Positions 13,440 through 32,487 of a DNA stretch of 36,081 bases are shown here, piece by piece. This stretch comes from Streptosporangiaceae bacterium (GTDB taxonomy: Bacteria; Actinomycetota; Actinomycetes; Streptosporangiales; Streptosporangiaceae), in the NCBI GenBank assembly GCA_039928335.1, contig JBDSTJ010000633.1, forward strand, positions 1-36,081, given 5' to 3'. Made by a program: the position numbers and the translations under genes. The notes below the pieces were generated by a model, which saw only the letters and a list, made by a program, of their open reading frames with translations, did no database searches and was not told the origin of the DNA. The first letter of the stretch is position 1. Every line of letters starts with the position of its first letter.

Positions 13440-13522
13440 GGGCGAGTGGCGGAACGGCAGACGCGCACGGTTCAGGTCCGTGTGCCCGAAAGGGTGTGAG
13501 GGTTCAAATCCCTCCTCGCCCA
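13440..13522 (+). tRNA. tRNA-Leu(CAG)
   Basis: Acceptor GGGCGAG/CTCGCCC-A; anticodon arm CACGG-TTCAGGT-CCGTG; variable arm GCCCGAAAGGGT; T-loop GGTTCAAATCC; CCA not encoded. Confidence 0.97.
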
Positions 13523-13565
13523 CGTAGGGGTACCGACGAAAGTCCGTGCCCCAGAGTGGCGGAAC

Positions 13566-13597
13566 AAGCTCCAGCGCGGCAAGCGTTGGGGCTTTTT
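13566..13597 (+). terminator. Intrinsic terminator after tRNA
   Basis: AAGCTCCAGCGC-GGCAA-GCGTTGGGGCTT (with G-U pairs) running into a T tract. Confidence 0.8.
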
Positions 13598-13731: not shown

Positions 13732-15549
13732 TTAGCCGGCAGGTTGTTCGAGGTGGCCTTTGGGTGTCCAGGTGCCCAGGGGTTGGGTGGTTCTGCGGCG
13801 GGCGCGGCGCCTGGGGATGCCGTTGGCGCCGGGGAAGGTGTCGGTCCAGGCGTCGATTTTCCGTTGGTTGGCGCGGGCGAGTTGGAAGGCCAGCAGGATG
13901 CTCTGGGCGGCGATGCCGCGGATTCGTCGGTTCTGGGCGCGTTCGATGGCTTCGTGGGCGTCGTTCTTGGTGTAGCCGTTCATGCCTTCGACGGCGTTGC
14001 GGAGTTTCCCGTAGGTCTGTTGCCACTGGGGGCCGCCGTAGGGGTAGTACTGCCACTGTTTCGCCCCGAACTCGGGTGCGAGGGTGATGCTGGTCTGTTC
14101 ACAGATTTTTGGTGGTCTGACCGGGCTGGGCACGGGCTGGATCAGGGGTAGAGCTGGGTTGGTGCCCATGCTGGCGGGTTTGAGGGGGCATTGGACCTTC
14201 CCTGCGGCGGCTGGGCACATTCGTCGCTGGTGTCCTTCTTCGTCTGGGTGGCCTTTCGCGGGCAGGAGGTAGGGTGTGCGGGCGTTGATCCGTCTGGACC
14301 AGGTTTCGGGGTCGATGCGGGCGGGGTCGTTGTCGGGCCGGTGCAGGTCGGTGGTGGCGTCGATGAGGTGTTGGGGCATGGACGGGCAGGCCCAGGAGCC
14401 CTCGATGAGGGGTGCGCCGTAGGCGGATCCCTGGATGCCGAGCTGGTCGCTGCGGTAGTCGTAGGAGGGCCGGTAGCCCAGGGCGAGGAGTGGTAGCTGC
14501 CATTCTTTGGGTTTGGAGTTGTTGTAGGCGGCGTCGCCGGCGAGGTGCCCGGCGGGCCAGCCGCGTCCCCGGATGTCGGTGAGGATTTTGATGCCGATCG
14601 CTCCGGGCCGGTGCCCGGGTTTGCCGAGTTTCATGCCCAGGACCAGGGCGGGGATCTCGGTGGGGTCCCCGAGGCCGTGCAGGGCGGGGTTCGGGATGTG
14701 GTGGGGGTTGCGGGTCACGGCCAGGGTGGCGTCGTAGCCGAACAGGAATTTCGGGTGGTTCCGGGTTCGTTTTCGGTTGGCTCGTCCGGTTCCTGCGGGG
14801 TTGGGGCGGTGCGGGTCGGCGTGGTCGCCCTCGCGTACGTACCAGCCGGCGTCGGTGTCGGTGGAGGTGTGCGTGGCGAGGGGGTCGGTGCGGACACCGC
14901 GCGCGAACGTGGCGATCACGGTGGCGTCGACTCCCAGAGACCCGTCCCAGTGTTCGTGCATGAGGTGGGCGATCGAGGCGACGGAGGCCTGGAGGATGGT
15001 GCCGCAGATCCGGTCCAGGCGATCCTCCCGGACGGCCAGGGCGTCGGTGTCGGCGTTGGCGGCATAAGCGGCTGCTTCCTGGAGGGGGAGCCGGGAGTTC
15101 TTGGGCAGCGGTGAGGGGTCCATCTGGGCGAGGATCGCGTGGAACAGGCGCAGGACGACGCCGTAGGCCGCTTCGAACCCGTCGCGGTCGTCGGGTTTGT
15201 CGGTCAGCCCGAACCTGCGCCTCCATTCCTCGGGGATCCCCCAGAAGAGGATGTCGGTGACCTGGTTGAAGGCCACCGATCCGTTGCGGCGCGAGCACAG
15301 GGTCATGCCGACCAGGAGCCCCTCGACGGTGCAGGTGCGGGGCCGTCCGGTGCGGGCGGTGACCAGGTCCTGGAGCTCCTGGGCGATCCCGGTCGAGGCG
15401 ATGAACTCCGTGGCGCGCCGGACCCGCAGGTCGTGGAAGAAGATCCGGTCCTCCCGGATGCTCCCCCATCCGTGGTCCTTGCGCCCGCCAGAGGCGGGCA
15501 GAGCTCCGCTGAAGCGGTTGACGGAGCTGGAACAGGGCTGGTCGCTCAT
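13732..15549 (-). CDS. Putative DDE transposase (IS4/IS5/IS1182-like signatures), 605 aa
   Basis: TGRPR N-terminal motif; LGVDATVI (D1), FGYDATL, LAGDAAY (D2), Cys cluster (CP..CPA..CP..C), YGKLRNAVEGMNGYTK (Y-R-E-K). ATG overlaps the upstream stop (ATGA). Confidence 0.72.
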   Translation of the reverse strand: MSDQPCSSSVNRFSGALPASGGRKDHGWGSIREDRIFFHDLRVRRATEFIASTGIAQELQDLVTARTGRPRTCTVEGLLVGMTLCSRRNGSVAFNQVTDILFWGIPEEWRRRFGLTDKPDDRDGFEAAYGVVLRLFHAILAQMDPSPLPKNSRLPLQEAAAYAANADTDALAVREDRLDRICGTILQASVASIAHLMHEHWDGSLGVDATVIATFARGVRTDPLATHTSTDTDAGWYVREGDHADPHRPNPAGTGRANRKRTRNHPKFLFGYDATLAVTRNPHHIPNPALHGLGDPTEIPALVLGMKLGKPGHRPGAIGIKILTDIRGRGWPAGHLAGDAAYNNSKPKEWQLPLLALGYRPSYDYRSDQLGIQGSAYGAPLIEGSWACPSMPQHLIDATTDLHRPDNDPARIDPETWSRRINARTPYLLPAKGHPDEEGHQRRMCPAAAGKVQCPLKPASMGTNPALPLIQPVPSPVRPPKICEQTSITLAPEFGAKQWQYYPYGGPQWQQTYGKLRNAVEGMNGYTKNDAHEAIERAQNRRIRGIAAQSILLAFQLARANQRKIDAWTDTFPGANGIPRRRARRRTTQPLGTWTPKGHLEQPAG

Positions 15550-16481
15550 GAACGGCCTCGCAGAAGAACGGCGGCTTCGGCGGGGCCGGTGGGGCGGCAG
15601 TAGGGCAGGATCCGGGACAGGCCGTGTAGGGTCTCCAGCCCGGCGGCGGAGATGATCACGGGTAGGGGCAGGCCCGCGTCGATGAGGCCGACCAGCCACG
15701 TGGTCCGCAGCCGGGTCGTCTTCATCGCCGGGGTGCTCGCGGCGGGGTGAGCGCGTGAGAGGAAGTTCGTGACGAGGTTCCCGCCGCGGTTGGCCGCGTC
15801 CGGTCGGAACAGGTACGGCCGGGCGGTCATCCGGGCGGCGTGATCGGCCAGGACCGTCTCCCAGGCCCGCTGGCACACCACCGTCCGGGCGCGTTTGCCG
15901 CGCACCGCGACGACCAGCGGATCGTCTGGTCCGCGCCGCTCGCGCACGTCGCCGGGCCGCAGCGGGGCGATCTTGCCGGAGTCCAGGCCGCAGCCCAGGC
16001 CGAGGGCCAGCAGAATGCTCAGCCCGTCCCGCAGTTCCCGGCTGGGCTGCCCGGCCGCCCACGCCCACAGTGCGGACTGTTCGGCCGTGGTGTAGGGCAG
16101 GGAGGCCGCGGACCCCGACAGGCGGGCAGGCCTGCCGGTCGCGCAGTCACCTCCCAGGACCGCCTCCCGCAGCCGCAGCAGCTTGGACCGGTAGTTCGCC
16201 CGGGTCGCCTCACCGGCCTGGGCGCAGCCCACCGCGGTGAACCGTTCGATGTACTCCCGCGACAGCCACATCGCAGCCTGCACCGGATACCCCTCGGTGT
16301 CGGCGAACAACGCCAGCTTCGCCAGCACCCCCATCAGCTCCGCGGCCGGATACGACACCAACGGCGCGGCCCGGACGACCGTGGCCCTGACCTCGGCGGC
16401 CACCCGCCGCCACCCGGGCGGGTTGCCGGCCGGAACGTAGGACTCCACACCCGCGGGGAAGCCCGCATGCTGCTCGTTCAC
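15546..16481 (-). CDS. Tyrosine-recombinase-fold protein 1, catalytic residues degenerate
   Basis: TRANYRSKL; PYT; LGLGCGLDSGKIAPLRPGDV (box I Arg replaced by Asp); VRGKRARTV; TRLRTTW; AAGLETLHGLSRILPY. Start uncertain (16481 or 16532). Confidence 0.7.
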   Translation of the reverse strand: MNEQHAGFPAGVESYVPAGNPPGWRRVAAEVRATVVRAAPLVSYPAAELMGVLAKLALFADTEGYPVQAAMWLSREYIERFTAVGCAQAGEATRANYRSKLLRLREAVLGGDCATGRPARLSGSAASLPYTTAEQSALWAWAAGQPSRELRDGLSILLALGLGCGLDSGKIAPLRPGDVRERRGPDDPLVVAVRGKRARTVVCQRAWETVLADHAARMTARPYLFRPDAANRGGNLVTNFLSRAHPAASTPAMKTTRLRTTWLVGLIDAGLPLPVIISAAGLETLHGLSRILPYCRPTGPAEAAVLLRGRS

Positions 16482-16637
16482 ATCGGCCTGCCATCGACGC
16501 GTCCAGAAGAGAACCCTTCCCTTCAAGATCATCAAATGCCCACGTCGCAGGGGTGCTACACCATTCGCATCTCGGGGCGGTGTTTGCCCGGGCACTGGTG
16601 GTTCACAATGTGGGCTGTGGCCGGTGACGACTCTCGA

Positions 16638-16922
16638 ATGATGCGGCCCCGCGAGTTCGTGCTCGACGGGGACTGGCCGAGGGCGCTGATGGCCGACCAC
16701 CACGGCGCCCGGGTCGCCCAGGGCCTGGCCCGCAGGGTGGCCGAGGAGATGGACAGGCAGCAGATCAGCGCCCAGCGCCTGGGCGTGCTGAGCGGGGTGA
16801 ACCGGCAGACGATCGCGAACGTGCTGGCCGGGTCGGTCTGGCCGGATCTGCTGACCATGGCCAACCTCGACCGGGCCCTGGATCTGCGGCTGTGGCCGGA
16901 CCTGTGCGACCGACAGCGCTGA
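16638..16922 (+). CDS. XRE-family HTH regulator
   Basis: ISAQRLGVLSGVNRQTIANVLAGSVWPDLLTMANLDRALDLRLWP. Start 16608 or 16638. Confidence 0.85.
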   Translation: MMRPREFVLDGDWPRALMADHHGARVAQGLARRVAEEMDRQQISAQRLGVLSGVNRQTIANVLAGSVWPDLLTMANLDRALDLRLWPDLCDRQR

Positions 16923-16974
16923 ACGGGCCGTACGGAAAAGACGAAGCGGACGGGGCATGACAATTCTCGCCATC

Positions 16975-16993
16975 TCTCCGGCCTGGCCGGAGA
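16975..16993. terminator. Palindrome between convergent HTH and recombinase-like gene 2
   Basis: TCTCCGGCC-T-GGCCGGAGA. Confidence 0.45.
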
Positions 16994-17155
16994 CTCTGGC
17001 AGACGACCGCGTCCGCGCCCGGTCGATCCCCGCGCGCCGCAGGGCGGCGCACAGTAGGGTCGAAGGCGTTGACCTGGCTATCTGATGACCGTTGGGTGCA
17101 GGTCGGCAATTGCCGTCGCCGGGGTTCCAGCCCGGCGGCGGTCTGCCGTTGGAGA

Positions 17156-18280
17156 TCAGCCCAGACGACCGCCCTGATCACGGCCGCACAGCTCGATCAC
17201 CCGGTCGGGCTCCGCGGCGCGCGGCCCCGGAATCGAAAGGTTCGCTGGGGTGCGCAGGAGCCGGGCGGCCTCGTCGGGGTCGGTGGCGGTCAGATAGGGC
17301 GTGACCCGGTCAAGGGTCCTGCGGGTGTGCGGCCCGGCCTGAGCGAAGATCACGTCCAGCGGTACCCGTGCGTCGATCCTTCCGACGAACCACGTCGCAT
17401 GCAGTCTGCTCAACTGCAACGTGGGAGTGTCGGGGCTGAGATCGGCCCGTGCCAGGAGACCCGACACCAACGACACCGTCCGGGTGGCGCTGCCCGGGCG
17501 GAACACCGGGCTGCCGGGTTCGGCGTTCTTCGGCAGTTCCGCCAGGAGATGGTCCTCCCAGGACTCCAGGCACACCGCCGGCGGCCGGTAGGCCTCGCCC
17601 TGGACCACCACCTCCAGGTGCGCCCGGTCTCCTGACCGGAGTACGTCCCGCATCCGGACATCGACGATCGCCGGTGGCAGCAGGCCGCACCCGTACCCCA
17701 GGCACATCAGCATCTTGCAGCCCTGGCGCAGCAGTTCGGTGCGCTGGCCGCGCGCCCACCACCACAGGTCCCTCATCTGCTCGGGGCTGTAGGGCCGCCA
17801 CGGGCTGATCTCCCACAGCGTCTGCGCCGGGATCCGGTGGTCGCGTCCCTGCAGGACGGCCTCACGCAGCTTCGTCAACTGCCTGGTGTAACGGTCCCGG
17901 GTCCCCTTGGAGAGGTTCCCGCAGCCCACCGTGACGAACCGGTCGATCAGCTCCCGAGCCAGCAGGACCGGAGCCTGAGGCGGGTAGCCGTCGTTATGGG
18001 CGAACACGGCCAGCCGTGCGGTGACCAACAGCAGTTCCTGAGCCAGCTCGGGGCTGCCCGGGTCGGCCCGGGCGACGATCCGCCGGACCTCCTCCTCCAT
18101 CACCGCCCAGGCTTTGGACAGCTCGACCGGTCGGAACCGTTCGATCCGATCGATCACCTGGTCCCGCCGGCGGAAGACACCCGCGGCAGGACGCTTCGTC
18201 CCGGCCATCGCCGCCCCAGCACGCGGGCGGTACGGTCTGGAATCCGCCGACACGGGCGGAAATGCGGGTTCATCATGCAT
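17156..18280 (-). CDS. Tyrosine-recombinase-fold protein 2 (paralogue of 15546-16481), degenerate
   Basis: Shares IDRFVTVGC/IERFTAVGC, LREAVL, PY, LWWWARGQ/LWAWAAGQ, LGYGCGL, VFRP, RLHATW, AARLLR. Start 18208 or 18280. Confidence 0.72.
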   Translation of the reverse strand: MHDEPAFPPVSADSRPYRPRAGAAMAGTKRPAAGVFRRRDQVIDRIERFRPVELSKAWAVMEEEVRRIVARADPGSPELAQELLLVTARLAVFAHNDGYPPQAPVLLARELIDRFVTVGCGNLSKGTRDRYTRQLTKLREAVLQGRDHRIPAQTLWEISPWRPYSPEQMRDLWWWARGQRTELLRQGCKMLMCLGYGCGLLPPAIVDVRMRDVLRSGDRAHLEVVVQGEAYRPPAVCLESWEDHLLAELPKNAEPGSPVFRPGSATRTVSLVSGLLARADLSPDTPTLQLSRLHATWFVGRIDARVPLDVIFAQAGPHTRRTLDRVTPYLTATDPDEAARLLRTPANLSIPGPRAAEPDRVIELCGRDQGGRLG

Positions 18281-18553: not shown

Positions 18554-19369
18554 TCAGACGGCTTTCTCCGAGAACGCGGCCGTGGTGACGTACTGGAAAC
18601 GTCCCGAGGGACGCCTGGCCAGCAGACCGTCAGCGGCCATGTCCTTCAGCAGGTTCATCAGCGCTTCCCGGTCCAAGATCCCCAACTGGTCGGCGATCTC
18701 GGTCGGCCGCCACCGCCGCGCCGAATGCTCGTGCAGGAACGCCAGAACCTGAGGCCGGTCGATCAGGGTGGTCTGGCGAGAGGGATCCCGGACGGCCCCG
18801 AACAGCGGGTAGGTCACGTTCGCCGCCGGATCCTCTCCTCCGGTCGCTGTCTGCGACGACGCGGGCGACTGCTCGGAGTCGGCAAGCCGGTACATGGAGG
18901 CGGCCGTCTTGACCAGCCGCCCCGTCTTGGTCATGTACTTCATCAATGACCGGACGCTCTCGAGGCTGGCGTCCTCGCCCATCTCCCGCGCCACATCCTT
19001 CGGGTGCCGGGCCCTCGACCGGTCCGTCGCCATGATCCTGACGATCAGATCGCACCGCGTCGGTGCAGCACCGGGCCTGCCCTGTTTCCGTGGCGGCGCC
19101 TCTTCGGCGTCACCCGGCCCCGGAGCGGTGCCATCCGTCCCCGTGACGGCCTCGGTGGCCATGGCGTCGGCGAGAAGGACCTTCAACGTCTCCTCGGCCT
19201 GCTCCATCAGAGCCAGCCTGCCGCGCACCTGGTACAGAACGACCTCCAGGTGCGTCACCTGGACACGCAAGGGAGCCATGTCCCCCTGCAGAAACCCCAG
19301 CGAATCCGCATATGACCAACTTGCCGATCTCGTTGTCGAGTGCTCTTCGTCGCCCACGAGCCGAGACAT
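18554..19369 (-). CDS. Hypothetical protein, coiled coil plus two winged-helix-like segments
   Basis: Heptad segment LRVQVTHLEVVLYQVRGRL; HPKDVAREMG..SVRSLMKYMTKTGRLVK..YRL and WRPTEIADQLG..LLKDMAADGLLAR..GRFQY. Start uncertain. Confidence 0.6.
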   Translation of the reverse strand: MSRLVGDEEHSTTRSASWSYADSLGFLQGDMAPLRVQVTHLEVVLYQVRGRLALMEQAEETLKVLLADAMATEAVTGTDGTAPGPGDAEEAPPRKQGRPGAAPTRCDLIVRIMATDRSRARHPKDVAREMGEDASLESVRSLMKYMTKTGRLVKTAASMYRLADSEQSPASSQTATGGEDPAANVTYPLFGAVRDPSRQTTLIDRPQVLAFLHEHSARRWRPTEIADQLGILDREALMNLLKDMAADGLLARRPSGRFQYVTTAAFSEKAV

Positions 19370-19617
19370 TACCCCGAGTAGTCGACCGAGCACTCGATTT
19401 CGGATGTGGCAGGGGGAGCGTGTCTCGGGAGACCGCGCGAGACCAACGCCGCGTAGGCCTACCTGAACTGTCATGGCCGCCCTACCCGGCAGGCAACACT
19501 CCTCGTGCCAGACCGCGATTCATCATTCCGGGAGGGTTCGGCGAACGCGACGTCGGGCGCGGTCGCGGTGAGGGCCGCGTCGGACGGAGGTCCCGCGGGG
19601 CCGCTGCTCCTCGATGC

Positions 19618-20100
19618 TCAGGTCTTCGTGCCAACAGGTGTCGGCCCGGGCACCCCGGGGGCGGGCGTGAGGGCGGGGGCGAGGCGTTCGATGCGGGAGG
19701 AGGGTTCCCAGAAGGCCTTCTCGAACGCGGCGTCGGTGTCGGCACGGACGGGGTCGGGCACCGACCAGCGCAGGACGGCGTGGATACCGAGTTCCTCATA
19801 AGCGGTGTCGCAGACCGCCGCGATCAGATCGTCGGTGCGCAACACGTCCTGGACGTGCGCGGTGTGTCCGGCGTGCAGGGGTAGCCCGTGCCTGTGTGCG
19901 GTGCTGACCGTCCGCGGATGGACGCGGGGTGCGGGGTCGGTGCCGGCGGAGAGAGCGGGCACGGTGTCGCGCTGATTCCACAGGGCCGCGGCGAGCTGGG
20001 AGCGGCGGAGTTGTGTGTGCAGACGAACACCACCCGGGACGCCGCCCGGGTGAGGACCGCGACGGCAGGGTTCAGCCCGGCGAGGGCGTGGGCGGGTTGG
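19618..20100 (-). pseudogene. arsC: ArsC/LMW-PTP arsenate reductase-like, frameshifted in the CX5R loop
   Basis: VVFVCTHNSA, 1-nt loss near 20002, then SQLAAALW..SAGTDPAPRVHP..VCD..WSVPDPV. No clear start. Confidence 0.8.
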
Positions 20101-20198
20101 GTGAGCGGCAGCTTCAGTATCTGCTGCAGGCGCTGGCGGACTGATCGGCGTGACGGGCCGGTCTGGGCGGTGCTCGGGTGGGTGAGACGATCGCCGGG

Positions 20199-20486
20199 TC
20201 AGGTCGCGGGTGTGCGGTGCCAGGGCGAGGTGGGGGCGGTGCCTTTCGGGTGGGCGGTGGTCCGTAGCGCCTAGGTGGGTGGCTGGTTGCGGATGGCGCC
20301 GAGGTAGGTGTGGCCGGTGAGGTGGCACCAGGCGGGCAGGTCGATCGGGGCGGCGGGGTCGGTCGCGATCAGCTGGATGAGGGTGTCGGCGGGCAGGTCG
20401 GTGATCCGGGCGCGTAGGTCCAGGAGGAGCGTGACGCAGGCCCGGTCCGCGCCGTCGATCAGGACGGGGGTGTCCGGGCTGGTCAT
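20199..20486 (-). pseudogene. tusA: TusA-family sulfur carrier, probable premature TAG at 20271-20273
   Basis: IDGADRACVTLL..ATDPAAPIDLPAWCHLTGHTYLG; the frame continues past TAG as ALRTTAHPKGTAPTSPWH to TGA 20199. Confidence 0.7.
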
Positions 20487-21139
20487 GCGGTGGTGACGGG
20501 GAGTCCGTCGTCGGCCCATTCGGTGAGGCCGCCGTCCAGGATCCGTGCGGTGCGGCCGTGTGCGGTGAGGATCCGGGTGGCTCGGGCGGACATGACGCAG
20601 AACCGGCCCCGGCAGTAGGCCACCGCCTCGACGTGGTCGGGGAGTTCGGCCAGCCGTGCCTCCAGTTCGCCGACCGGGATGCCGAGGGCTCCGGTGATGT
20701 GCCCGGCGGCGTACTCCTGGGCGGGCCGCACATCGAGGACGACGGCTTCTCCGGTGCCCAGGCGGTGGGCCAGTTCCTGGCGGGACACTGGTTCGGCGGT
20801 GTCGCCCAAAAGTCGTCCGGCGGCGTCCCTGGCGTCGGGGAGCAGGTCGTGGGCGAGGCGTTTGACCTGTTCGAGGAGGATCACCACGCGGGGGTCGGTG
20901 ATCCGGTACAGGACCCGGGTGCCGGACCGGCGGGAGGTGACCAGCCCGGCCGCGGCCAGGGTCTTCAGTTGCGCGGAGGTGTTGCTCAACCGCATTCCCG
21001 CGACGGCGGCCAGGTCCTCGACGCCGCGTTCGCCCTGGGCCAGCAGGTCCACCAGTTCGAGGCGGGACGGCGCAGCCAGGGCCTTGGTGACCCGGGTGAA
21101 CTCCGTCAGCAGCGCGGTCTTGCCCGTTGTCGGCTCCAC
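20483..21139 (-). CDS. ArsR/SmtB regulator fused to rhodanese domain
   Basis: KALAAPSRLELVDLLAQGERGVEDLA..GLV..YRI; LDVRPAQEYAAGHITGA; AYCRGRFCVMS; LDGGLTEW. Confidence 0.93.
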   Translation of the reverse strand: MEPTTGKTALLTEFTRVTKALAAPSRLELVDLLAQGERGVEDLAAVAGMRLSNTSAQLKTLAAAGLVTSRRSGTRVLYRITDPRVVILLEQVKRLAHDLLPDARDAAGRLLGDTAEPVSRQELAHRLGTGEAVVLDVRPAQEYAAGHITGALGIPVGELEARLAELPDHVEAVAYCRGRFCVMSARATRILTAHGRTARILDGGLTEWADDGLPVTTA

Positions 21140-21147
21140 ACCAGTCC

Positions 21148-21163
21148 TCCAATACTCTTTGGA
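21148..21163. promoter_or_regulatory. Putative operator of the ArsR-rhodanese regulator
   Basis: TCCAA-TACTCT-TTGGA just upstream of its start codon in an 81-bp divergent spacer. Confidence 0.55.
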
Positions 21164-21220
21164 ACAGTGTAGGAGAATGTCGTGCCGGTCGGTCCGGCCG
21201 AGCGGGAGGCTGTGGGGCGC

Positions 21221-21841
21221 ATGGGTGAGACCGGGCGGAACACCGAGCACTGGCAGCGGATCTACAGCGACCGGGGCCCGGACGGGGTGTCGTGGTTCCA
21301 GGCCGATCCGGCCCTGTCGGTGGACCTGGTCGTTCAGGCCGCGGCCGGGGACCGGGACGCACCCGTGATCGACGTCGGTGGCGGCGCGTCGCTGCTGGGC
21401 TCCCGAATGGCCGCCGACGGCCACGCCGACGTGACCGTGCTGGACCTGTCCGCCCGGGCGTTGGAGGCCTCCCGCCGCCAGGACGTGACCGGGACGGTGA
21501 TCCACCTGGAGCATGACCTGCTCACCTGGCGGCCGCAGCGCCGCTACCGGGTGTGGCATGACCGTGCGGTGTTCCATTTCCTCACCGAAACCGCAGACCG
21601 GGACGCCTACCGGAGAGTCCTGCGGAGCGCCCTGGTCCCCGGCGGGCACCTGATCCTGGCGACGTTCGCCCAAGACGGCCCCACCCACTGCTCCGGGCTG
21701 CCCGTCGCCCGCTACAGCCCCGAGACCCTGGCGGCCGAGCTCGGTGACGGATTCGTCCTCACCGCCTCCCGCGACGAGCAGCACCTCACCCCCACCGGGG
21801 CGGCACAGCACTTCACCTGGATCACCGCGACCCTGACCTGA
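21221..21841 (+). CDS. Class I SAM-dependent methyltransferase
   Basis: HWQRIY..VSWFQ, VIDVGGGAS, VLDLS, WHDRAVFHFL, FAQDGPTHCSGLPV. Confidence 0.9.
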   Translation: MGETGRNTEHWQRIYSDRGPDGVSWFQADPALSVDLVVQAAAGDRDAPVIDVGGGASLLGSRMAADGHADVTVLDLSARALEASRRQDVTGTVIHLEHDLLTWRPQRRYRVWHDRAVFHFLTETADRDAYRRVLRSALVPGGHLILATFAQDGPTHCSGLPVARYSPETLAAELGDGFVLTASRDEQHLTPTGAAQHFTWITATLT

Positions 21842-21954
21842 CGCTCTCCCCCTCGGGCGGCTTTCCGAGGCGACCACTTGTTCCATCCCCGCCCAGGAGG
21901 AAACCGCCCGCACGGCGCACGCCGGGTCGCGGGCCGGTCTGGTGCGGGGCCGGG

Positions 21955-23031
21955 TCAGCGGTGGGAGGCCAGGGGGGCGTGGTGGTCGGTGCCGTCGCGG
22001 GGGTGGGGATCGGCGTGGACGAGCGCGGCGGTCAGGCGCGGAATGGCATGGATGAGGGCGTGTTCGGCGTTCACGGTCACCTGGTGGGCACGGATCAGGG
22101 TGGTGTCGGGGTCGACGACGATGTCGCATTCGGCGCGGAGCCGGTGGCCGATCCACCGCATCCGGACCTGTCCGACGTCCAGGACTCCGGGGGTGGCCTT
22201 CAGGGTGGTCTCGGCCTGGTCGATGAGGGCGGGGTCGACGGCGTCCATCAGCCGCCGGTACACCTCCCGGGCGGCCTGGCGCAGGACCGCGAGGATCGCG
22301 ACGGTGATGAGCAGGCCCACGATCGGGTCGGCCCGGTCCCAGCCGAGCGCGACCCCGCCCGCGCCGGCCAGGACGGCCAGGGAGGTGAATCCGTCGGTGC
22401 GGGCGTGCAGGCCGTCGGCGACCAGCGCCGCCGACCCGATCTTCCTTCCCACCCGGATGCGGTAGCGGGCGACCAGTTCGTTCCCGGCGAACCCGGTCAG
22501 GGCGGCGACGGCCACGGCCCACAGGTGGGTGACCGGTTGCGGGTGGGCGAGCCGGTCGATGGCCGCCCAGGCCGCCGCGACCGACGACAGGGCGATGGTG
22601 ACGACGATGACGATTCCGGCGAGGTCCTCGGCCCGCCCGTACCCGTAGGTGTAACGGCGGGTCGGCGGACGCCGGCCGAGCAGGAACGCGATCCCCAGCG
22701 GAACCGCGGTGAGGGCGTCCGCGGCGTTGTGCAGGGTATCGCCGAGCAGCGCCACCGACCCCGACAACGCCACCACCACGCCCTGCACGACCGTCGTGGC
22801 ACCCAGCACCCCCAAGGAGATCCACAACACCTGCATCCCCTCCGCCGAGGACTCCATCGCCGAGTCGACCTTGTCGGCGGCCTCATGCGAATGCGGTGCG
22901 ACCACATGGCCGATCCGGCCCAGGAACCCCGCCCGGCGGCCACCAGCACCACCGTCATGCCCGTGCCCGTGCCCAGGACCGTGGTCGTGCTCGTGCTCGT
23001 GGGTGTCGGGGTGCTGGTGCTGATCGCTCAT
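21955..23031 (-). CDS. Cation diffusion facilitator with His-rich N-terminus
   Basis: HQHPDTHEHEHDHG; SVALLGDTLHNAAD; YGYGRAEDLAG; ADGLHARTDG; VHADP. Confidence 0.93.
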   Translation of the reverse strand: MSDQHQHPDTHEHEHDHGPGHGHGHDGGAGGRRAGFLGRIGHVVAPHSHEAADKVDSAMESSAEGMQVLWISLGVLGATTVVQGVVVALSGSVALLGDTLHNAADALTAVPLGIAFLLGRRPPTRRYTYGYGRAEDLAGIVIVVTIALSSVAAAWAAIDRLAHPQPVTHLWAVAVAALTGFAGNELVARYRIRVGRKIGSAALVADGLHARTDGFTSLAVLAGAGGVALGWDRADPIVGLLITVAILAVLRQAAREVYRRLMDAVDPALIDQAETTLKATPGVLDVGQVRMRWIGHRLRAECDIVVDPDTTLIRAHQVTVNAEHALIHAIPRLTAALVHADPHPRDGTDHHAPLASHR

Positions 23032-23357
23032 GGTTCGACGATCGCAGGAAAAGGCTCCTGCAGCACCTCGACAACAGCGCAGGTCACGCTCTTGCGACCT
23101 GTTCGCCTCGAGGGGATGGATGGCGGTAGAGCTGTCCGGCACGGCTCGCTCTACGCCGCTGACGTCGCGGGCGAACTGGCAGGACCGGGTGGAGGCGTGG
23201 GCGCATTGCCCGGGTGACGGCCAGGTGGTGTGGGCGGGGGTGCGGCGCCGCCGGGACGCGGTCCACGGTTCGGGGAAGTGCCGGACCCGAACATGGCGGG
23301 CGCGGACGAAGACCGGGACCCGCCTTGTACCGGCCGAGGGGCCGCAGGAAGCGTTTG

Positions 23358-23424
23358 ACCGTGACGCGGATCCGTCACATCGTGCCGGGCAAATCGGACA
23401 CTCGTGACGGCTGAGCGTCACGGT
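23358..23424. repeat. Inverted pair of GTGACG-N6-CGTCAC palindromes
   Basis: Sites at 23361-23378 and 23404-23421; 21-bp arms match 18/21 as an inverted repeat. Confidence 0.7.
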
Positions 23425-23489
23425 GGGACGGTCGCGGGGCAGGGCTGCGGGGCCCGCAGCGAGATCGACCGCTTGACTGCCCAGCTGTA

Positions 23490-23520
23490 TTAGTGAACAC
23501 TAACCGTTAGTGGATACTAA
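23490..23520. promoter_or_regulatory. Tandem palindromic operator overlapping ArsR start
   Basis: TTAGTG-AA-CACTAA-CCG-TTAGTG-GA-TACTAA; TTGACT at 23473-23478 upstream. Confidence 0.7.
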
Positions 23521-23833
23521 CCAAGCAGGGGACGGCTGGAGTGCGCTGGCGGACGGCACGCGGCGTGCCATCGTGAGCTGCCTCGCTGAGGGACCGCAGG
23601 CGGTGGGACAGCTCGCCGCGCAGCTGCCGGTTACCAGATCCGCGGTCTCCCAGCACCTGAAGATCCTCAAGAACGCCGGTCTTGTCAGTGAGCATGCGGC
23701 CGGCACGCGACGGATCTACCGGCTCAACCCAACGGCGGTGGCCGCGTTGCGCGATCAGCTCGACGCTTTCTGGCAGCGGGCTCTGGTCAGCTACGTAGAG
23801 GTTGCCGAACAAGCGACGGAGGAGAGTTCATGA
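23510..23833 (+). CDS. ArsR-family regulator
   Basis: ALADGTRRAIV..GPQAVGQLA..VSQHLKILKNAGLV..GTRRIYRL. Confidence 0.92.
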   Translation: MDTNQAGDGWSALADGTRRAIVSCLAEGPQAVGQLAAQLPVTRSAVSQHLKILKNAGLVSEHAAGTRRIYRLNPTAVAALRDQLDAFWQRALVSYVEVAEQATEESS

Positions 23834-24312
23834 CCCGAACCGAGACCACCGTGGTCCGCAAGCAGGTCCTGGTCAACGCGGCGATCATGCAGGCCTTTAC
23901 CGCGTTCACTGAGCGATTCGGCGACTTCAAGCCACCGGAACACAACCTGCTCGACGCGCCGATCGCCGAGACGGTGTTCGAGCCGCGCGTCGGCGGACAC
24001 ATCTACGACCGCGCGACCGACGGCAGCGTGTGCCGGTGGGCACGCATCCTGGCCTACGAACCGCCGCACCGCGTGGTGTTCAGCTGGGACATCGGCCCGC
24101 AATGGCAGGTCGAGACCGATCCGGAGCTGACCAGCGAGGTCGAGGTCCGGTTCGTCGCGGAGGGCACCGACCGCACTCGGGTCGAGCTTGAGCACCGGCA
24201 CCTCGACCGTCACGGTGCGGGTTGGCAGTCGGTCGGCGAGGGAGTCGACGGCGACCAGGGCTGGCCGCTGTACCTGGCTCGTTACGCCGCTCTGTTCGCG
24301 CGGGAGGGCTGA
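23830..24312 (+). CDS. SRPBCC/AHSA1-like protein
   Basis: FEPRVGGHIY, YEPPHRVVFSW, SEVEVRF, TRVELEHR, GWPLYL; ATGA-coupled to ArsR. Confidence 0.88.
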   Translation: MTRTETTVVRKQVLVNAAIMQAFTAFTERFGDFKPPEHNLLDAPIAETVFEPRVGGHIYDRATDGSVCRWARILAYEPPHRVVFSWDIGPQWQVETDPELTSEVEVRFVAEGTDRTRVELEHRHLDRHGAGWQSVGEGVDGDQGWPLYLARYAALFAREG

Positions 24313-24313
24313 C

Positions 24314-24769
24314 ATGGCGCCGGTCATCGTGACGGTGGAGGTGGACCGGCCCGCCGCCGAGGTCTTCGCCTACGCCACCGACCCGACGCGGTTTCCGGAA
24401 TGGCAAGCGGGCGTCATCGACGGTCACCTTGACGATTCCGGCACGCCGCGGGTGGGTGCCAGGTGCGTGACCATCCGACGCATCGGCGGGGCCGAGCGGC
24501 CGGTGACCTCGGAACTGACTCACATCGACCCGCCCAGGACGTGGGGGGTGCGCGGTATCGACGGACCCATCCGCGCCACCGTCGACCTCACGGTGGTACC
24601 GCTGACAGCGACCAGGTCCCGGCTGACCATCGCGGTCGACTTCGAGGGGCATGGCGTCGGCAAGGTGCTGGTCCCGCTGCTCGTGCGCCGTCAAGCGCAC
24701 AAGGAGATGCCGGCCAACGTCGCGAACCTGAAACGACATCTGGAATCCCGGCATTCGCAATCCTCGTAG
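24314..24769 (+). CDS. SRPBCC (polyketide cyclase-like) protein
   Basis: VEVDRPAAEVFAYATDPTRFPEWQ...ANLKRHLE. Confidence 0.88.
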   Translation: MAPVIVTVEVDRPAAEVFAYATDPTRFPEWQAGVIDGHLDDSGTPRVGARCVTIRRIGGAERPVTSELTHIDPPRTWGVRGIDGPIRATVDLTVVPLTATRSRLTIAVDFEGHGVGKVLVPLLVRRQAHKEMPANVANLKRHLESRHSQSS

Positions 24770-24799
24770 CGAGCGTGGCCGTCGCCGTCTGGTGAATGT

Positions 24800-25264
24800 T
24801 CAGCACTCGATCGAGCGGATGCGGTCCATGACCGTGCACGCGACCGAGATGAACGCGGTGATGTCCTCGGCTGGGATCTCATCGAACAGCCAGGTGTAGC
24901 CCACCCGGTATTCCTCGCTCAGGGCGGTCATCGTCTCCGCGCCCTTGGCGGTCAACGCCACCAGCGTGGCGCGCCGGTCCGTGGGGTGCTTGCCCCGCGC
25001 CGCGAAGCCGTCTTCCTCCAGGGCGTCCACCAGGCCGGTGATGTTGCGTGGGGTCACACCGATCACGTCGGCCAGTTCGCGCTGGGTGACCGGGCCGAGC
25101 TGGTGGAGCGCCCACAGCACCGACGTCCTGGCCCGGGACAGGCCGCGTTCGGCCATACCGCGTTCCATGAACTCCGACGTCATCACCGCCAGTTCGAACA
25201 ATCGTTCAAGCGCGCCGGACCCGGCCTGGGGTTGGACACCAGGTGTATTGTGTATGTACTTCAC
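24800..25264 (-). CDS. MarR-family regulator
   Basis: TQRELADVIGVTPRNITGLVDALEEDG..HPTDRRATLVALT; GGAGG upstream of GTG 25264; imperfect palindrome ATTGTGTA-N5-TTCACTAT (25247-25267) over the start. Confidence 0.9.
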   Translation of the reverse strand: MKYIHNTPGVQPQAGSGALERLFELAVMTSEFMERGMAERGLSRARTSVLWALHQLGPVTQRELADVIGVTPRNITGLVDALEEDGFAARGKHPTDRRATLVALTAKGAETMTALSEEYRVGYTWLFDEIPAEDITAFISVACTVMDRIRSIEC

Positions 25265-25316
25265 TATGTTGTATCCTCCCGATAATGAGGGTAGCCCGAG
25301 AACCGGGAGGGACGCC

Positions 25317-25946
25317 ATGAGTCACCGCCACCCCCTTTTCGCCCGTTTCTACGCCCGCACGAGCCTGCTCATGGAAAGCGGCGTCGGAGCACACCGCCGC
25401 ACTCTGCTTGAGGGACTGTCCGGCCGGGTGATCGAGATCGGCGCGGGCAACGGCCTGAACTTCCCGCACTACCCGCAGACGGTCACCGAGGTCATCGCCG
25501 TCGAGCCCGAGCCGCACCTGCGGACCATCGCCGAGACCTACGCCGAGCGCACCACCGTCCCGATCAACATCGTGAATGGTCTCGCTGATCGCCTCCCGGC
25601 CGAGGACGCCTCCTGCGACGCGGCGATCGCGTCGCTGGTGCTGTGCACGGTGCCCGATCAGGACGCCGCACTGGCCGAGATCCGGCGCGTCCTCAAACCC
25701 GGCGGCCAGCTGCGTTTCTTCGAACACGTCCAGGCCGCCACGGCCGGCAGGCACCGGATCCAGAAGGCCCTGGACGCCACCGTCTGGCCGGTGTTCGGTG
25801 GCGGCTGCCACTGCTCCCGCGACACCCGGTCGGCGATCGAACGCGCCGGGTTCTGTCTCGACCGCATCGACCAGCTCACCAGCGCCGACACCAAGCTGCC
25901 CTTCCCCGCCGCGCCGCAGATCCTCGGCACCGCCACACGCCCCTGA
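25317..25946 (+). CDS. Class I SAM-dependent methyltransferase (type 11-like)
   Basis: VIEIGAGNGLNFPHY, VEPEP, LVLCTVPD, RVLKPGG..FEHV; GGAGG RBS. Confidence 0.92.
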   Translation: MSHRHPLFARFYARTSLLMESGVGAHRRTLLEGLSGRVIEIGAGNGLNFPHYPQTVTEVIAVEPEPHLRTIAETYAERTTVPINIVNGLADRLPAEDASCDAAIASLVLCTVPDQDAALAEIRRVLKPGGQLRFFEHVQAATAGRHRIQKALDATVWPVFGGGCHCSRDTRSAIERAGFCLDRIDQLTSADTKLPFPAAPQILGTATRP

Positions 25947-26059
25947 AAGATGTGGGTGAGCATGGTGTTGATCAACGTCCCGCAGGCATCCCCGAGAAGC
26001 CGACGCGAGCGGAGAAGCGGGCGAACAGCCGATGCCGGACTGAGCCATCGTCGTGGGCT

Positions 26060-26299
26060 GGGCCAGGAGCGGAGCGTCGCCACGCACATACCGGACTGGT
26101 GCGCCGACCCTTGCAGGGCGGTGTCCCTCGCTCCAGGCACGAGATCGCGGTGGGCCATCACCTCATGCCGGGCCTCATAGCTCATCGAGGCCGCCTCGGT
26201 GCTGTGGCAGCCCCGTGCGCCGACGCTGAGGCCGTGCATCAGGAACAGTCCGCCCAGGACCGCGAGCACGCAGGCCAGGCGGGCGGCTCTCCGCCACAC
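26060..26299 (-). pseudogene. Possible fragment of small His/Met-rich membrane protein (DUF6153-like)
   Basis: VLAVLGGLFLMHGL...MAH...GMCVATL; no sensible C-terminus before running into the opposite gene. Confidence 0.35.
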
Positions 26300-26301
26300 C
26301 G

Positions 26302-26557
26302 TGGATGGGGAGGTCCAGTACGGGACAACGTGATCAGCCGCACCGTGGCGGCACCGACCTTTCTGGAGAGCGTCGAAGGAATCGTCGTCGAAGTGGCCCG
26401 CGCTGCGGAGGACGCCGACCACCACCCCGACATCGACATCCGCTGGCGCAACGTGACGCTCAGCCTCACCACCCACGATGCCGGTAACGCACTCACCGCA
26501 CTCGACTTCAGCCTCGCTGCGAAGATCGACGAGATCGCCGCACGTTACGGCGCGTAG
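26302..26557 (+). pseudogene. Pterin-4-alpha-carbinolamine dehydratase, N-terminus missing
   Basis: ISRTVAAPTF..AEDADHHPDIDIRWRNVTLSLTTHDAG..LTALDFSLAAKID; lacks the usual first helix and a clear start. Confidence 0.75.
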
Positions 26558-26736
26558 CTCCCTCACCAGACCCGGGCCCGCCCCTACTGCTGCAGGGGCG
26601 GACCCGGCCGGAGCGCGTGGCGACCGCGTCCAGCAGAACCCGGGTGCCGGTGACGTTGGCGTCCATCGCGGCTGGCAGGGTGCGTGGTGGCCATGTCCGT
26701 CTCTCCTTCGTTCTCCGCTTGCCCCATCTCAGCAAG

Positions 26737-26753
26737 ATACCCCCTAGGGGTAT
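26737..26753. promoter_or_regulatory. CsoR-type copper operator
   Basis: ATACCCC-CTA-GGGGTAT, perfect 7-bp arms with the C-tract/G-tract typical of CsoR sites. Confidence 0.7.
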
Positions 26754-26828
26754 TTCCCTCGACGGCGTGATGGTCGTCGCCTTCGATGGCGGCATTCCCG
26801 ACATCCACCTGTACGATCAACCTCCAGC

Positions 26829-26845
26829 TCCTACAATATGTCGGA
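26829..26845. promoter_or_regulatory. Putative BlaI/CopY-family operator 1, overlapping -10 TACAAT
   Basis: TCCTAC-AATAT-GTCGGA. Confidence 0.7.
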
Positions 26846-26873
26846 CCGCTGTCGAGTCGAGGGTTGGTACTGG

Positions 26874-27872
26874 GTGAATCGCCGCAGTTCAGTGGCAGTC
26901 GGGTTGGCCGTCGCGCTGTCGCTCCTAGCGACGCCTGTCGTGCCGGCGGCGGCCGAGCCGAAGCCCAGCCGCAAGGAGCTCACGGCGAAGGAGAAGAAGC
27001 TCGTCGACCAGCTGGAGGTACTCACCGAACAGCACAACGGTCTGGTCGTCCGGCTCGAGCAGTCCCAGCGTGCCGCCAAGGCCGCCAAGGGCACCTCCGC
27101 CAGAGCACAGCTGAAGCTCGACGATGCCCGCACCGCAGTCGCCCGGCTCGCAGCCGAGAGGTACAAGAACAGCGGCCTCGACACCGGCATGGCCATGGCG
27201 GTGTCAGCCGATCCGCAGAGCCTGCTCGACCGCTACTCGGCCGTCGGATTCCTGGCCGCCCAGAGCGACACCCGCATCACCGGTCTCATGACCGCGTTGC
27301 AGTCGGCCGCCCGCACCCGTAAGGCCTCCGATGACCGGATCGACCAGGTCAAACGGCTCACCAAGGAATCGGACGACAAGCGCAAGAAGATCCAGGGCCT
27401 GCTGAAGAGTGTTCGCGACAAGCTGGGCAAACCGCCGACCTCTCCCAAGGACCCACCGCCGGTCGTCGACCAGGGCCAGGCCTCGCAGAAGGCGATGGGC
27501 GCGGTCAAAGCGGCGCTGGCGCAACTCGGCGTCCCCTACTCCTGGGGCGGCGGCAACGCCTCAGGCCCCAGCTACGGCACCGATCAAGGCGCCAACATCA
27601 AGGGCTTCGACTGCTCCGGCCTGACCCTCTATGCGTACGCCCAGGTGGGCATCAACCTTCCCCACTACACCGGCGACCAGTGGAACTCCGGCGCCCGCCT
27701 CGGCCGCAGCAACCTTCGGCCCGGCGATCTCGTCTTCTTCTACGGGGACCTGCATCACATGGGCATGTACATCGGCAATGGCAAAATGATCCACGCCCCA
27801 CAGACCGGCGACGTCGTCAGGATCAGCAGTATCGACGGTCGGCCCTTCGCGGGCGGCGTCCGGGTAGCCTGA
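26874..27872 (+). CDS. Secreted coiled-coil + NlpC/P60 peptidoglycan endopeptidase (RipA-like)
   Basis: Signal peptide ending PAAA; coiled coil; LGVPYSWGGG, GFDCSGL, PGDLVFF, HHMGMY, MIHAP. Confidence 0.93.
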   Translation: MNRRSSVAVGLAVALSLLATPVVPAAAEPKPSRKELTAKEKKLVDQLEVLTEQHNGLVVRLEQSQRAAKAAKGTSARAQLKLDDARTAVARLAAERYKNSGLDTGMAMAVSADPQSLLDRYSAVGFLAAQSDTRITGLMTALQSAARTRKASDDRIDQVKRLTKESDDKRKKIQGLLKSVRDKLGKPPTSPKDPPPVVDQGQASQKAMGAVKAALAQLGVPYSWGGGNASGPSYGTDQGANIKGFDCSGLTLYAYAQVGINLPHYTGDQWNSGARLGRSNLRPGDLVFFYGDLHHMGMYIGNGKMIHAPQTGDVVRISSIDGRPFAGGVRVA

Positions 27873-27874
27873 TC

Positions 27875-27891
27875 TCCTACAGGCCTTAGGA
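27875..27891. promoter_or_regulatory. Putative BlaI/CopY-family operator 2, directly upstream of the repressor
   Basis: TCCTAC-AGGCC-TTAGGA. Confidence 0.6.
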
Positions 27892-27902
27892 AGGAAATCC
27901 CG

Positions 27903-28295
27903 GTGACGAGCAAGGGCGCGCTCGAACGGATCATCATGGACGTGCTGTGGCCCGAGACCGAGCCCCTGCTCGTCCGCGAGCTGATGGAACGGGTCAACAA
28001 GCACACCGACCGCCCTCTCGCCTACACCACGGTCCAGACCGTCGCCGACCGGCTCGTCGCCAAGGATCTGCTCGTCCGAACCCGCCACGGCAATGCATGG
28101 CGCTACGCCACCCGCCAGTCCCGCGAGGATCACGTCGCCGCCCTCATGCTGGAGGCCCTGTCCGGGGTGACCGACAGCGGCCTCACCCTGAGCAGGTTCG
28201 CCGAAGGCATCGAAGGAGAGGACGCCCACCGCCTCCTCGAGGCGCTGTCCCGGCGGGCTCTGCAGGGCTTGAAGCCGGACGGAACCGGGTCTTGA
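27903..28295 (+). CDS. blaI: BlaI/MecI/CopY-family repressor
   Basis: GALERIIMDVLW..LAYTTVQTVADRLVAKDLLVR..AWRY..SREDHVAALM. Confidence 0.92.
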   Translation: MTSKGALERIIMDVLWPETEPLLVRELMERVNKHTDRPLAYTTVQTVADRLVAKDLLVRTRHGNAWRYATRQSREDHVAALMLEALSGVTDSGLTLSRFAEGIEGEDAHRLLEALSRRALQGLKPDGTGS

Positions 28296-29215
28296 CCATC
28301 TTCGCGCTGCTCGCCGCGGCCGCCGTCGTTCTCGGCCACCTCGCCGGGCCGGCTCTCGCCCGTCAGGAGTGGACACAGCGGCACCCGGTCCCCGCGATCG
28401 TGCTGTGGCTCGCAACTCTCTGCGCCGCAGTCGCGGCCGCCGTCGGATTCGTCGCGTTCGCCGTCTTCAGTTCCCCTCAACCCGGCCACACCCTCGTCGA
28501 GTGGGCTCTGAGCTGTGCCTCGGGCCATGCCCACTCAGGGACCTGGGAAGCCGCGATCCTCAGCCTTCCGCCCGTCATCGCCTTTCTTCTCGCGGCCCGG
28601 ATCGGCGTCCGCCGCCTTCGTTCGACCATCTCCGCCCGCCACCGGCACGGGGAGATGCTGCGGCTCGTCACCCGCGAGACCGACGAGCTGGCAGACACCT
28701 GCATTCTCGACCACCCCATCCCGATCGCGTACTGCCTGCCGGCTCGCGGCCGTCCCATCGTCGTGAGCAGCGGCGCGTTGGACGTCCTGGACCCCGGCCA
28801 ACTGGCAGCCGTCCTCGACCACGAACGCGCCCACCTCCGAGGCCGTCATCATCTGATCGTCGCCCTGGTCGATGCCCTCGCCCATACCCTGCCCTGGGCA
28901 GCGACCTTCCAGCACGGCCGCACCGCGCTCGCCCGCCTGCTCGAACACGCAGCCGACGACACCGCCGCCCGCCGACACGGCGCGACCACCGTCTTCAGCG
29001 CCCTGCACAAACTCACAGTCCTGCCCAGCCCCGCCGGCACTCTCGGTGCCGGAGCCAGCGCCCCCCAAGCGCTGTCCACCCGTCTCAACCGCCTCAGCAA
29101 TCCGGTCGCCTCCGCCCACGGCCGCCGTCTCGCCTGGTCAGCAGCAGCCCTCTCCTCCCTGCTTCCCGTCGCCATCCTCACCGGCTGGATGACCGCCATC
29201 GCCCTGAACTGCTGA
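28292..29215 (+). CDS. M56-family (BlaR1-like) membrane metallopeptidase
   Basis: TTGA overlap with blaI; N-terminal TMs, AYCLP, IVVSSGAL, AVLDHERAHLRGRHHL (HExxH), LEHAADD. Confidence 0.9.
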   Translation: MTIFALLAAAAVVLGHLAGPALARQEWTQRHPVPAIVLWLATLCAAVAAAVGFVAFAVFSSPQPGHTLVEWALSCASGHAHSGTWEAAILSLPPVIAFLLAARIGVRRLRSTISARHRHGEMLRLVTRETDELADTCILDHPIPIAYCLPARGRPIVVSSGALDVLDPGQLAAVLDHERAHLRGRHHLIVALVDALAHTLPWAATFQHGRTALARLLEHAADDTAARRHGATTVFSALHKLTVLPSPAGTLGAGASAPQALSTRLNRLSNPVASAHGRRLAWSAAALSSLLPVAILTGWMTAIALNC

Positions 29216-29463
29216 ATCCAGGCGGCGGCACCGATGGCCAGGACTAGATCATGGCTCAGGCCGTGCCTGTGACTCCACGGAAAGCACGGGTGGCCGGATG
29301 CCCACGGCGGGGGCGCAAGCCCACGGTGACGCGGTGGCCAAGTACGTCATCTGGAAACAGCGGATCTGGGACGTCCGGAGTGGCAACGGCTGGAAGCCCA
29401 TGTCCGACCGAGGCGGGGTCGTCGCCAATCATTTCGATCATCCCCATGTCTCCGTGCTCTGAG

Positions 29464-29560
29464 CCGTCGGCAGTGCGACGGAGACGGCAGTGTCGTCGAG
29501 GAGCAGCACAAAGGTGACCAGGGTGAGCCCGGCAGGGGTGCCCCAACGCTCCCGTCGCCC
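29464..29560 (-). pseudogene. Short N-terminal fragment of DHA2-type MFS transporter
   Basis: RWGTPAGLTLVTFVLLLDDTAVSVALPTAQ resembles the TM1 motif LDxTxVxVALP; the rest is absent. Confidence 0.5.
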
Positions 29561-29786
29561 GATCACTCGCGCACCCGAACCGTCACCAAGCAGACCGGTC
29601 CGCCCACGAGGCACAGCATCAGCCATGATCAGTGTCCGGGACGGTTGAGGCAGCGTCGTCACCGCTTCTCGATGGTGCCCGGCCCGTAGTTCCGATGCGC
29701 ATGATGCATATCCGTTCATCAACGTTCCGGCGATGGAAGCCCCGGTACGGAACTCGGCACTCCGAACTTGGTCGACCGGTGTGTGA

Positions 29787-32387: not shown

Positions 32388-32487
32388 GGCTGTCATCTCC
32401 AGACGATCACGAGAATCGCCGCCGGGTTCGGTTTCTCCCGGACGGCAACTCCACCCTCCACTGCCCGCGCCTGAACGAACAGAGTAC

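Follow-up and report, generated by a model that had tools for sequence, protein, structure and literature searches.

Mobility genes of an apparently undescribed DDE-type transposon family predicted to target tRNA 3' ends with a mostly inactive tyrosine recombinase homologue

Results

Genes at the locus

The DNA analysed here (referred to as the window) is a stretch of 36,081 nucleotides from a Streptosporangiaceae bacterium (contig JBDSTJ010000633.1, positions 1-36,081, of GenBank assembly GCA_039928335.1), which Pfam matches identify as the actinobacterial fhaA-pknB region. Next to its tRNA-Leu(CAG) gene lie the genes of a putative transposon: a predicted DDE transposase, a protein with a tyrosine recombinase (YR) fold, designated YR1, a divergent XRE-type gene and a second YR paralogue, YR2 (Table 1). 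An earlier note on this DNA, which proposed a new transposon type with a DDE transposase coupled to catalytically dead recombinase-fold proteins, had described these four open reading frames (ORFs) accurately, including the coupling of the 605-aa ORF to YR1, in which the ATG of the transposase overlaps the YR1 stop codon as ATGA. It missed the main property of the element, which is the base-pair-precise targeting of tRNA 3' ends.

Table 1. Features of the window
Feature	Position	Strand	Remarks
tRNA-Leu(CAG)	13440..13523	+	Target gene, uninterrupted, beside fhaA (ARAGORN; fhaA by Pfam match)
Target-site duplication ACGTA, 5 bp	13522..13526	+	Begins at discriminator A73; same register in relatives
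Transposase-3'-side end, terminal inverted repeat	13527..13564	+	Boxes at 13533 and 13556; hairpin 13527-13552
Terminator-like hairpin	13566..13594	+	Inside the element
DDE transposase (predicted), 605 aa	13732..15549	-	ATG at 15549; D208, D339, E521; Cys-rich insertion; Tn5/IS1182-like fold
YR1, tyrosine recombinase fold	15546..16481 (or to 16532 with ATG 16532)	-	311-328 aa; adjoins the transposase; box-I Arg, both His positions and the Tyr are missing
XRE-type helix-turn-helix (HTH) gene	16608..16922	+	Divergent; weak HTH_3 match (E 0.00095); accessory
YR2, second YR paralogue	17156..18280	-	GCGLL, QGEA, RLHATW; fast-evolving; lineage-specific
306-aa ORF	18554..19474	-	Weak winged-helix match; outside the span of the earlier note
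Passenger region	19618..36081		Metal/redox homeostasis genes up to the contig end (Pfam)

Ends and target site of the copy in the window

The first base of the element is 13527, directly after the ACGTA. The genes had been placed past the tRNA-Leu terminator, but the terminator-like hairpin lies within the element, where it likely replaces the displaced terminator of the tRNA. A search of the window did not reveal the far end of the element. The matching end was found on contig C714, the terminus of which is an inverted copy of the window end (14 of the first 15 bases identical), and the second copy of ACGTA forms the final 5 bases of that contig, after the far end. Because the assembly does not join both contigs, we only infer their connection.

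Nine genomes of the same genus were compared: five carry this end at the same base and four are empty, with the native hairpin directly after N73+4. Such a comparison with empty alleles had been proposed in the earlier note as a way to find ends, target and duplication. In the empty relatives, the backbone 3' of the tRNA corresponds to sequence on contigs C689, C347 and C698 and not to the window; the remaining 22.5 kb of the window is therefore taken to be inserted DNA. No promoter-like site was found in the window.

In run X1, a contig connects the C714 end with a second transposase-3'-side (right) end; here (window 13523-13556) the spacer between far end and right end is approximately 11 bases, versus 5. 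A circular intermediate was considered for this left-right junction and set aside. The junction contig and the tRNA junction have the same depth (4.9 and 4.5, both low and taken from contigs only), and stacked ends occur at the same place in two relatives; the junction thus fits a stack. C714 (L080) in genome G000 also has a second, incomplete right end (at 7657-7772; 81% to window 13560-13676) amid cargo genes (DUF305, two-component, DUF347 and M48), a sign of a stacked or deleted element.

tRNA targeting across relatives

In total 381 stretches were found, and 79 loci were kept. Near-identical copies within single genomes delimit an element of 3.2 kb with inverted repeats of ~16 bp, and the 5-bp duplication of these copies starts at the discriminator base; in one genome, copies that share 99% identity sit at tRNA genes for Leu, Arg and Asn. 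At 66 of the 79 loci the transposase-3' end was located 24 bp (63 loci) or 25 bp (3 loci) from the T-loop TTC. The other 13 loci comprised three stack junctions, three other cases and seven without a called end. Insertion orientation is fixed. The tRNA is left intact, therefore the site is reusable and elements stack. Four clades with differing end sequences share the same target register. Two promiscuous clades use 19 and 14 distinct target arms, versus 5 (Leu-type) and 2 (Ala) in two narrow clades; the pattern used for these counts itself presupposes the 24-bp spacing, and 2 of the 14 come from G270 and G062, both unpublished genomes.

Five genomes were surveyed in full for ends. Of the 25 ends, 16 lie at tRNA 3' ends or their remnants, 6 at stack junctions and 3 elsewhere. 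Exact duplications were present in 12 of 19 end pairs; of the remaining seven, one matches on inspection, two are tandems and four are unexplained or in stacks. In a second set, 13 of 29 ends had exact duplications. A duplicated tRNA 3' segment of the attL/attR type was not seen; just 5 bp are duplicated, outside the inverted repeats.

In the clade to which the window belongs, right ends open with a hairpin on the strand that has the sense of the tRNA, and a terminator-like hairpin comes next. The right-end hairpin had a z-score below -2 in 21 of 23 cases (mononucleotide shuffles) and was more stable than the opposite strand in 19 of 23. RNAalifold gave no consensus structure for the right end from a poor alignment, and single folds were used instead. 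A strict left-end pattern had no match in five relatives; a looser search found left ends in two of them.

Several loci deviate from the usual arrangement. At L003 (~11950-12150) the right end adjoins a CRISPR-like repeat array and no tRNA. Right-end remnants are present at tRNA-Leu in L153 and L154 (same genus), with neither transposase nor YR in the next 19 kb, and these would be non-autonomous or decayed elements. The ends at L073, L108 and L129 lie beside short 3' fragments of tRNA-Leu, which looks like the outcome of an integrase island that later split the tRNA and displaced the transposon. At the tandem junctions of L064, L066 and L068 the 5-bp spacer between copies does not match the duplication found at the tRNA there; such spacers could be relics of circle junctions or of recombination between copies. 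L131 and L132, on Streptomyces linear plasmids, are distant XRE-YR-transposase modules located away from tRNAs; in each, a T-loop-like AATCC core lies roughly as far from the presumed end as in other copies.

The transposase

According to its predicted model, the 605-aa protein is a transposase with an RNase H/DDE fold, and its activity is predicted. In the model (predicted local distance difference test score, pLDDT, 91), the three acidic residues are found on the first core strand (D208), behind a later strand (D339) and within a long helix (E521). The best solved structural match was Tn5 transposase (Foldseek probability 0.99, E 9e-3; Z 14.2, root mean square deviation 5.5 over 300 residues), and Tn4430 TnpA gave Z 9.2. 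The nearest named predicted models were DUF772 + DDE_Tnp_1 proteins (TM 0.51-0.54), which we take to be of the IS1182/IS5 type. The DDE fold that the earlier note had called for is thus present. Among 107 homologues D208, D339, R517, E521, K528 and C445/C454/C483 were invariant, in line with the two Asp residues and the Cys-rich insert that it had pointed out. Its YxxR spacing was wrong, the motif being Y-x3-R-x3-E-x6-K (Y513, R517, E521, K528). In 83 diverse members D208, R517 and E521 were invariant, and D339 and K528 were at least 90% conserved.

Pfam, NCBIfam, PHROGs and PADLOC gave no meaningful match for the transposase, YR1 or YR2, weak DDE Pfam matches occurred in 5 and 4 of the 83 transposase relatives, and a PDB sequence search with the transposase profile yielded nothing real. 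One homology search found 329 transposase homologues; the family (E up to 1e-30) amounts to 1,050 clusters at 50% identity, with transposases of 545-605 aa. Named homologues are annotated as 'hypothetical protein' or carry a generic recombinase label.

The YR proteins

A profile search with the YR matched archaeal Xer at E 1.6e-7, and the predicted model of YR1 matched Cre and XerA (XerA Z 15.3), as well as the inactive YR repressor MrpR (Z 10.8) and SroF (Z 12.1). The CB + CAT fold is assigned to YR1 by this model and to YR2 by its 40% identity to YR1 (299 aa, E 1e-57). The altered motifs listed in the earlier note were found again in the translations. YR1 has GCGLD, TRLRTTW and AAGLET where GLR, HxLRH and LGH are expected, which leaves D, -, T, R, L and I at the R-K-H-R-H/W-Y positions; YR2 has GCGLL, GE and RLHATW. 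Both are devoid of the box-I Arg and the Tyr.

Five catalytic positions were scored in 126 distinct YR sequences. The box-I Arg was present in 15; in the HxxR motif His was present in none and Arg in 121; the His/Trp position was V, L or I in 118; and Tyr was found at its position in 17. None of the 126 retained four or more of the five. Median pairwise dN/dS (the ratio of non-synonymous to synonymous substitution rates) for 136 Streptomyces pairs was 0.15 for YR and 0.19 for the transposase, and for 91 pairs of a clade that retains R..R..Y it was 0.43 and 0.38, respectively; these values were obtained by simple counting, the pairs are not independent and GC-rich DNA lowers dS. The counts and dN/dS values together indicate that catalytic residues were lost family-wide and that the YR is nevertheless maintained, so the proposed catalytic death holds as more than local decay. 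The R..R..Y clade is the exception, and on sequence criteria the label 'dead' is not valid across the entire family.

YR2 is probably a diverging duplicate. Its dN/dS versus distant relatives was 0.65 and 0.92, near saturation, and in a quick maximum-likelihood tree (62 rows, 24 near-duplicate rows removed) it clusters with other extra YR copies on long branches. At L016 and L045 the order is swapped, with the fast-evolving YR adjoining the transposase and the YR1-type copy distal.

Linkage, minimal elements and distribution

The predicted linkage of transposase and recombinase was complete. A YR gene was present immediately upstream at all 70 loci with a full-length transposase and absent from 8 of the 9 with a 5'-truncated one. 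In the reverse direction, a transposase sequence lay downstream in 40 of 40 regions around YR matches, which overlap partly with the 79 loci. The junctions are mostly 4-bp or 1-bp stop-start overlaps. Complete minimal elements measure 3.1-3.3 kb and are filled by YR and transposase alone. One clade (C), in which the YR is fully dead, has complete two-gene elements of 3.1-3.2 kb at Met, Thr, Lys and other tRNA ends. Some members carry cargo of at least 10 kb.

Relatives of the YR were found in 41 of 201 genomes of the family of the host, and a tally over the phylum gave 13 of 401 genomes, three unpublished genomes included. No relatives were found in the phage or viral collections searched.

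Accessory genes and passenger region

The XRE gene was present in 41 of the 70 loci with a full-length transposase and not in the minimal elements; it probably regulates the operon. A second YR was present in 4 of the 79 loci, and two same-genus genomes, one of which belongs to the 79, show it in the same five-gene order. Since minimal elements hold only YR and transposase, the XRE gene and YR2 are considered accessories. The integrase-like gene, one of the partners suggested at the outset, is thus obligate, whereas the XRE gene and second YR are lineage-specific extras. The 306-aa ORF type recurs beside the module in 22 of the 79 loci.

Genes at 19618-33000 encode LMW (low-molecular-weight) phosphatase/ArsC-like, TusA, ArsR-rhodanese, cation efflux, MarR, heavy-metal P-type ATPase, M48 peptidase and NlpC/P60 proteins. 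We infer that this passenger region lies inside the element or a stack of elements.

Discussion

Relation to known systems

The IS1182 family consists of single-ORF elements with a DUF772 + DDE_Tnp_1_6 transposase. The family described here resembles IS1182, IS5 and IS4 in fold, YREK-like motif, Cys-rich insert and short terminal repeats, but differs in its obligate second gene, its strict tRNA targeting, the cargo of some members and the lack of a Pfam or NCBIfam match. The IS1182 domains have no match in the 605-aa protein and weak ones in 5 of 83 relatives, although its structural neighbours carry them, and the YR gene at 70 of 70 loci does not fit a single-ORF layout. Tn3-family elements with a tyrosine resolvase (Tn4430 type) have a TnpA of ~1000 aa, 38-bp repeats and an active resolvase, whereas here the transposase is 545-605 aa without a Tn3 Pfam match, the repeats are ~16 bp and the YR is dead. 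Unlike tyrosine-integrase islands at tRNA genes, the elements have inverted repeats and a 5-bp duplication, and no attL/attR tRNA segment. Tn7 also generates a 5-bp duplication.

The closest precedent is TnsF of Tn6022-type Tn7-like transposons, an inactivated YR domain used with a DDE transposon to select a conserved chromosomal site (Faure et al. 2023, PMC10293859). That protein carries zinc fingers at its N terminus as well as CB domains in tandem, directs insertion to comM and acts together with TnsABC and TniQ; here a plain CB + CAT protein of ~300 aa accompanies a Tn5/IS1182-like transposase in two-gene minimal elements at tRNA 3' ends, without an ATPase. The complete elements of 3.1-3.3 kb leave no room for TnsB, TnsC or TniQ/TnsD genes. 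Tsy elements use active tyrosine recombinases and no DDE enzyme (PMC10293859). Tn7-like elements that home to tRNA genes through TnsD/TniQ, such as CyCAST 30-33 nt downstream of tRNA-Leu, likewise insert at a fixed distance, oriented, with the tRNA intact (PMC10293859), but here insertion is at the discriminator base itself and one element uses many isotypes. The ISAba32 subgroup of the IS1202 family consists of DDE elements whose insertions have a single orientation, keep a constant distance to a conserved site and duplicate 5 bp; these elements are ~1.5 kb and use the XerCD sites of the host recombinase, and the part of that report available to us mentions no recombinase-like gene (bioRxiv 10.1101/2022.12.17.520857). 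MrpR of prophage SPbeta is a YR fold that has lost catalysis and retained DNA binding, but it is a phage repressor uncoupled to a transposase (PMC10516654).

Proposed mechanism

At the level of sequence, the data establish that the element is of the DDE type, that it targets tRNA 3' ends precisely and that its YR is obligate, conserved and mostly dead. On this basis we lean towards the interpretation that the window genes form the mobility module of a family of transposons whose insertions fall at tRNA 3' ends with a 5-bp duplication, and in which the dead YR would be the target selector, reading T-arm DNA and positioning the transposase. A fixed-distance site common to many tRNAs needs a reader, and the minimal elements have only two proteins; in addition, tyrosine integrases are known to use the tRNA T-loop (PMC1762012), and TnsF is a tested precedent (PMC10293859). 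The YR would bind T-arm DNA (TTCRANYCC and flanking symmetry) as tRNA-integrating tyrosine integrases do and recruit the transposase-end complex directly, without a TnsC-like ATPase, after which the transposase would perform a staggered 5-bp strand transfer. Excision would probably be Tn5-like cut-and-paste, with a circular intermediate as the alternative, and the element end may supply the tRNA transcript with a hairpin and terminator in place of the native ones.

More tentatively, and at somewhat less than an even chance, the family may constitute a two-protein, ATPase-free transposition system, in which a tyrosine integrase that has been domesticated recognises the universal T-arm of tRNA genes and makes direct contact with a Tn5-like transposase to dock it. 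Insertion of cargo >10 kb would then be base-pair-precise, oriented and reloadable, at a site where it does no harm; exchange of the selector would retarget the system, and YR2 would be an alternative selector.

Several observations weigh against a role of the YR as selector. Binding of the YR to tRNA DNA or to the transposase is putative, and no full-length transposase relative lacking a YR was found that would isolate the role of the YR by comparison. Plasmid-borne L131-L133 keep the YR and have no tRNA beside the transposase, and neither do the distant loci L139-L141 and L143. Many of the Streptomyces loci share one orthologous tRNA-Leu and are therefore not independent cases; the spread over many target arms is stronger evidence for targeting than the Streptomyces counts. 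The R..R..Y combination is kept by 15 of the 126 YR sequences, which form one clade of minimal elements. Finally, single-gene DDE elements (IS1202/ISAba32) target dif sites at a fixed distance and need no selector of their own (bioRxiv 10.1101/2022.12.17.520857), and dead YR folds also serve as repressors, e.g. MrpR (PMC10516654).

A real but lesser possibility is that the site is chosen by the transposase itself or by a host factor at tRNA genes, and that the dead YR is a cofactor for end pairing or assembly, or else represses the operon. Elements of the IS1202/ISAba32 type, which have one gene, insert 5 bp from Xer sites (bioRxiv 10.1101/2022.12.17.520857), and YR-bearing plasmid copies sit away from tRNAs, although in two anecdotal cases (L131 and L132) the plasmid ends have the T-loop-like core AATCC at about the usual distance. 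MrpR, a dead YR turned repressor (PMC10516654), and SroF are structurally similar to YR1, but clades with a separate XRE regulator still retain the YR. The two repeated boxes and palindrome of the right end could be a dimer site. Against this rival reading, the YR is kept in four clades whose end sequences differ while target geometry is constant, and translational coupling would suggest stoichiometric partners.

It is improbable that the YR is still catalytic, be it by non-canonical chemistry or in some members only, and acts as a resolvase or a circle-forming excisionase. The tyrosine resolvases of Tn4430-type elements would be the model, the R..R..Y clade keeps the box-I Arg, the HxxR Arg and the Tyr, and the tandem spacers of L064, L066 and L068 differ from the local duplication as circle junctions would. 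Recombination between copies can also explain such spacers, however, and His, His/Trp and loop Lys are all missing from the R..R..Y clade. YR1, YR2 and clade C are without box-I Arg and Tyr, and clade C nevertheless forms two-gene elements that are intact and precise; inverted-repeat ends with 5-bp duplications are the signature of DDE chemistry.

It is highly improbable that an ordinary insertion sequence entered an integrase island of which the YR genes are the decaying remains: the long branch and dN/dS values of YR2 would fit and the relic reading could hold for YR2 alone, but it is refuted for YR1 by the 70/70 and 40/40 linkage, the conserved coupling, the purifying selection on YR1-type genes and the location of both genes within shared ends.

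Significance

In agreement with the earlier note, which knew of no named family with this layout, no description of a YR + DDE arrangement at tRNA ends was found in the full-text literature (main texts only, subscription papers mostly outside it), and the tyrosine recombinase classification, in the part available to us, mentions no such group (PMC8138268). The transposon family is apparently undescribed: each ingredient has a precedent, the combination has none. The transposase family is large and without annotation, and its elements pile up into islands at the tRNA genes of Actinomycetota, many Streptomyces among them; Pfam, NCBIfam and island finders that rely on integrases all miss it. It follows that tRNA-linked islands can arise through DDE chemistry. 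If the YR does act as the target selector, this would be a second, independent conversion of a tyrosine recombinase to that role, and the family would provide a targeted integrator much simpler than Tn7 or CAST (CRISPR-associated transposons), useful for safe-harbour insertion in actinomycetes.

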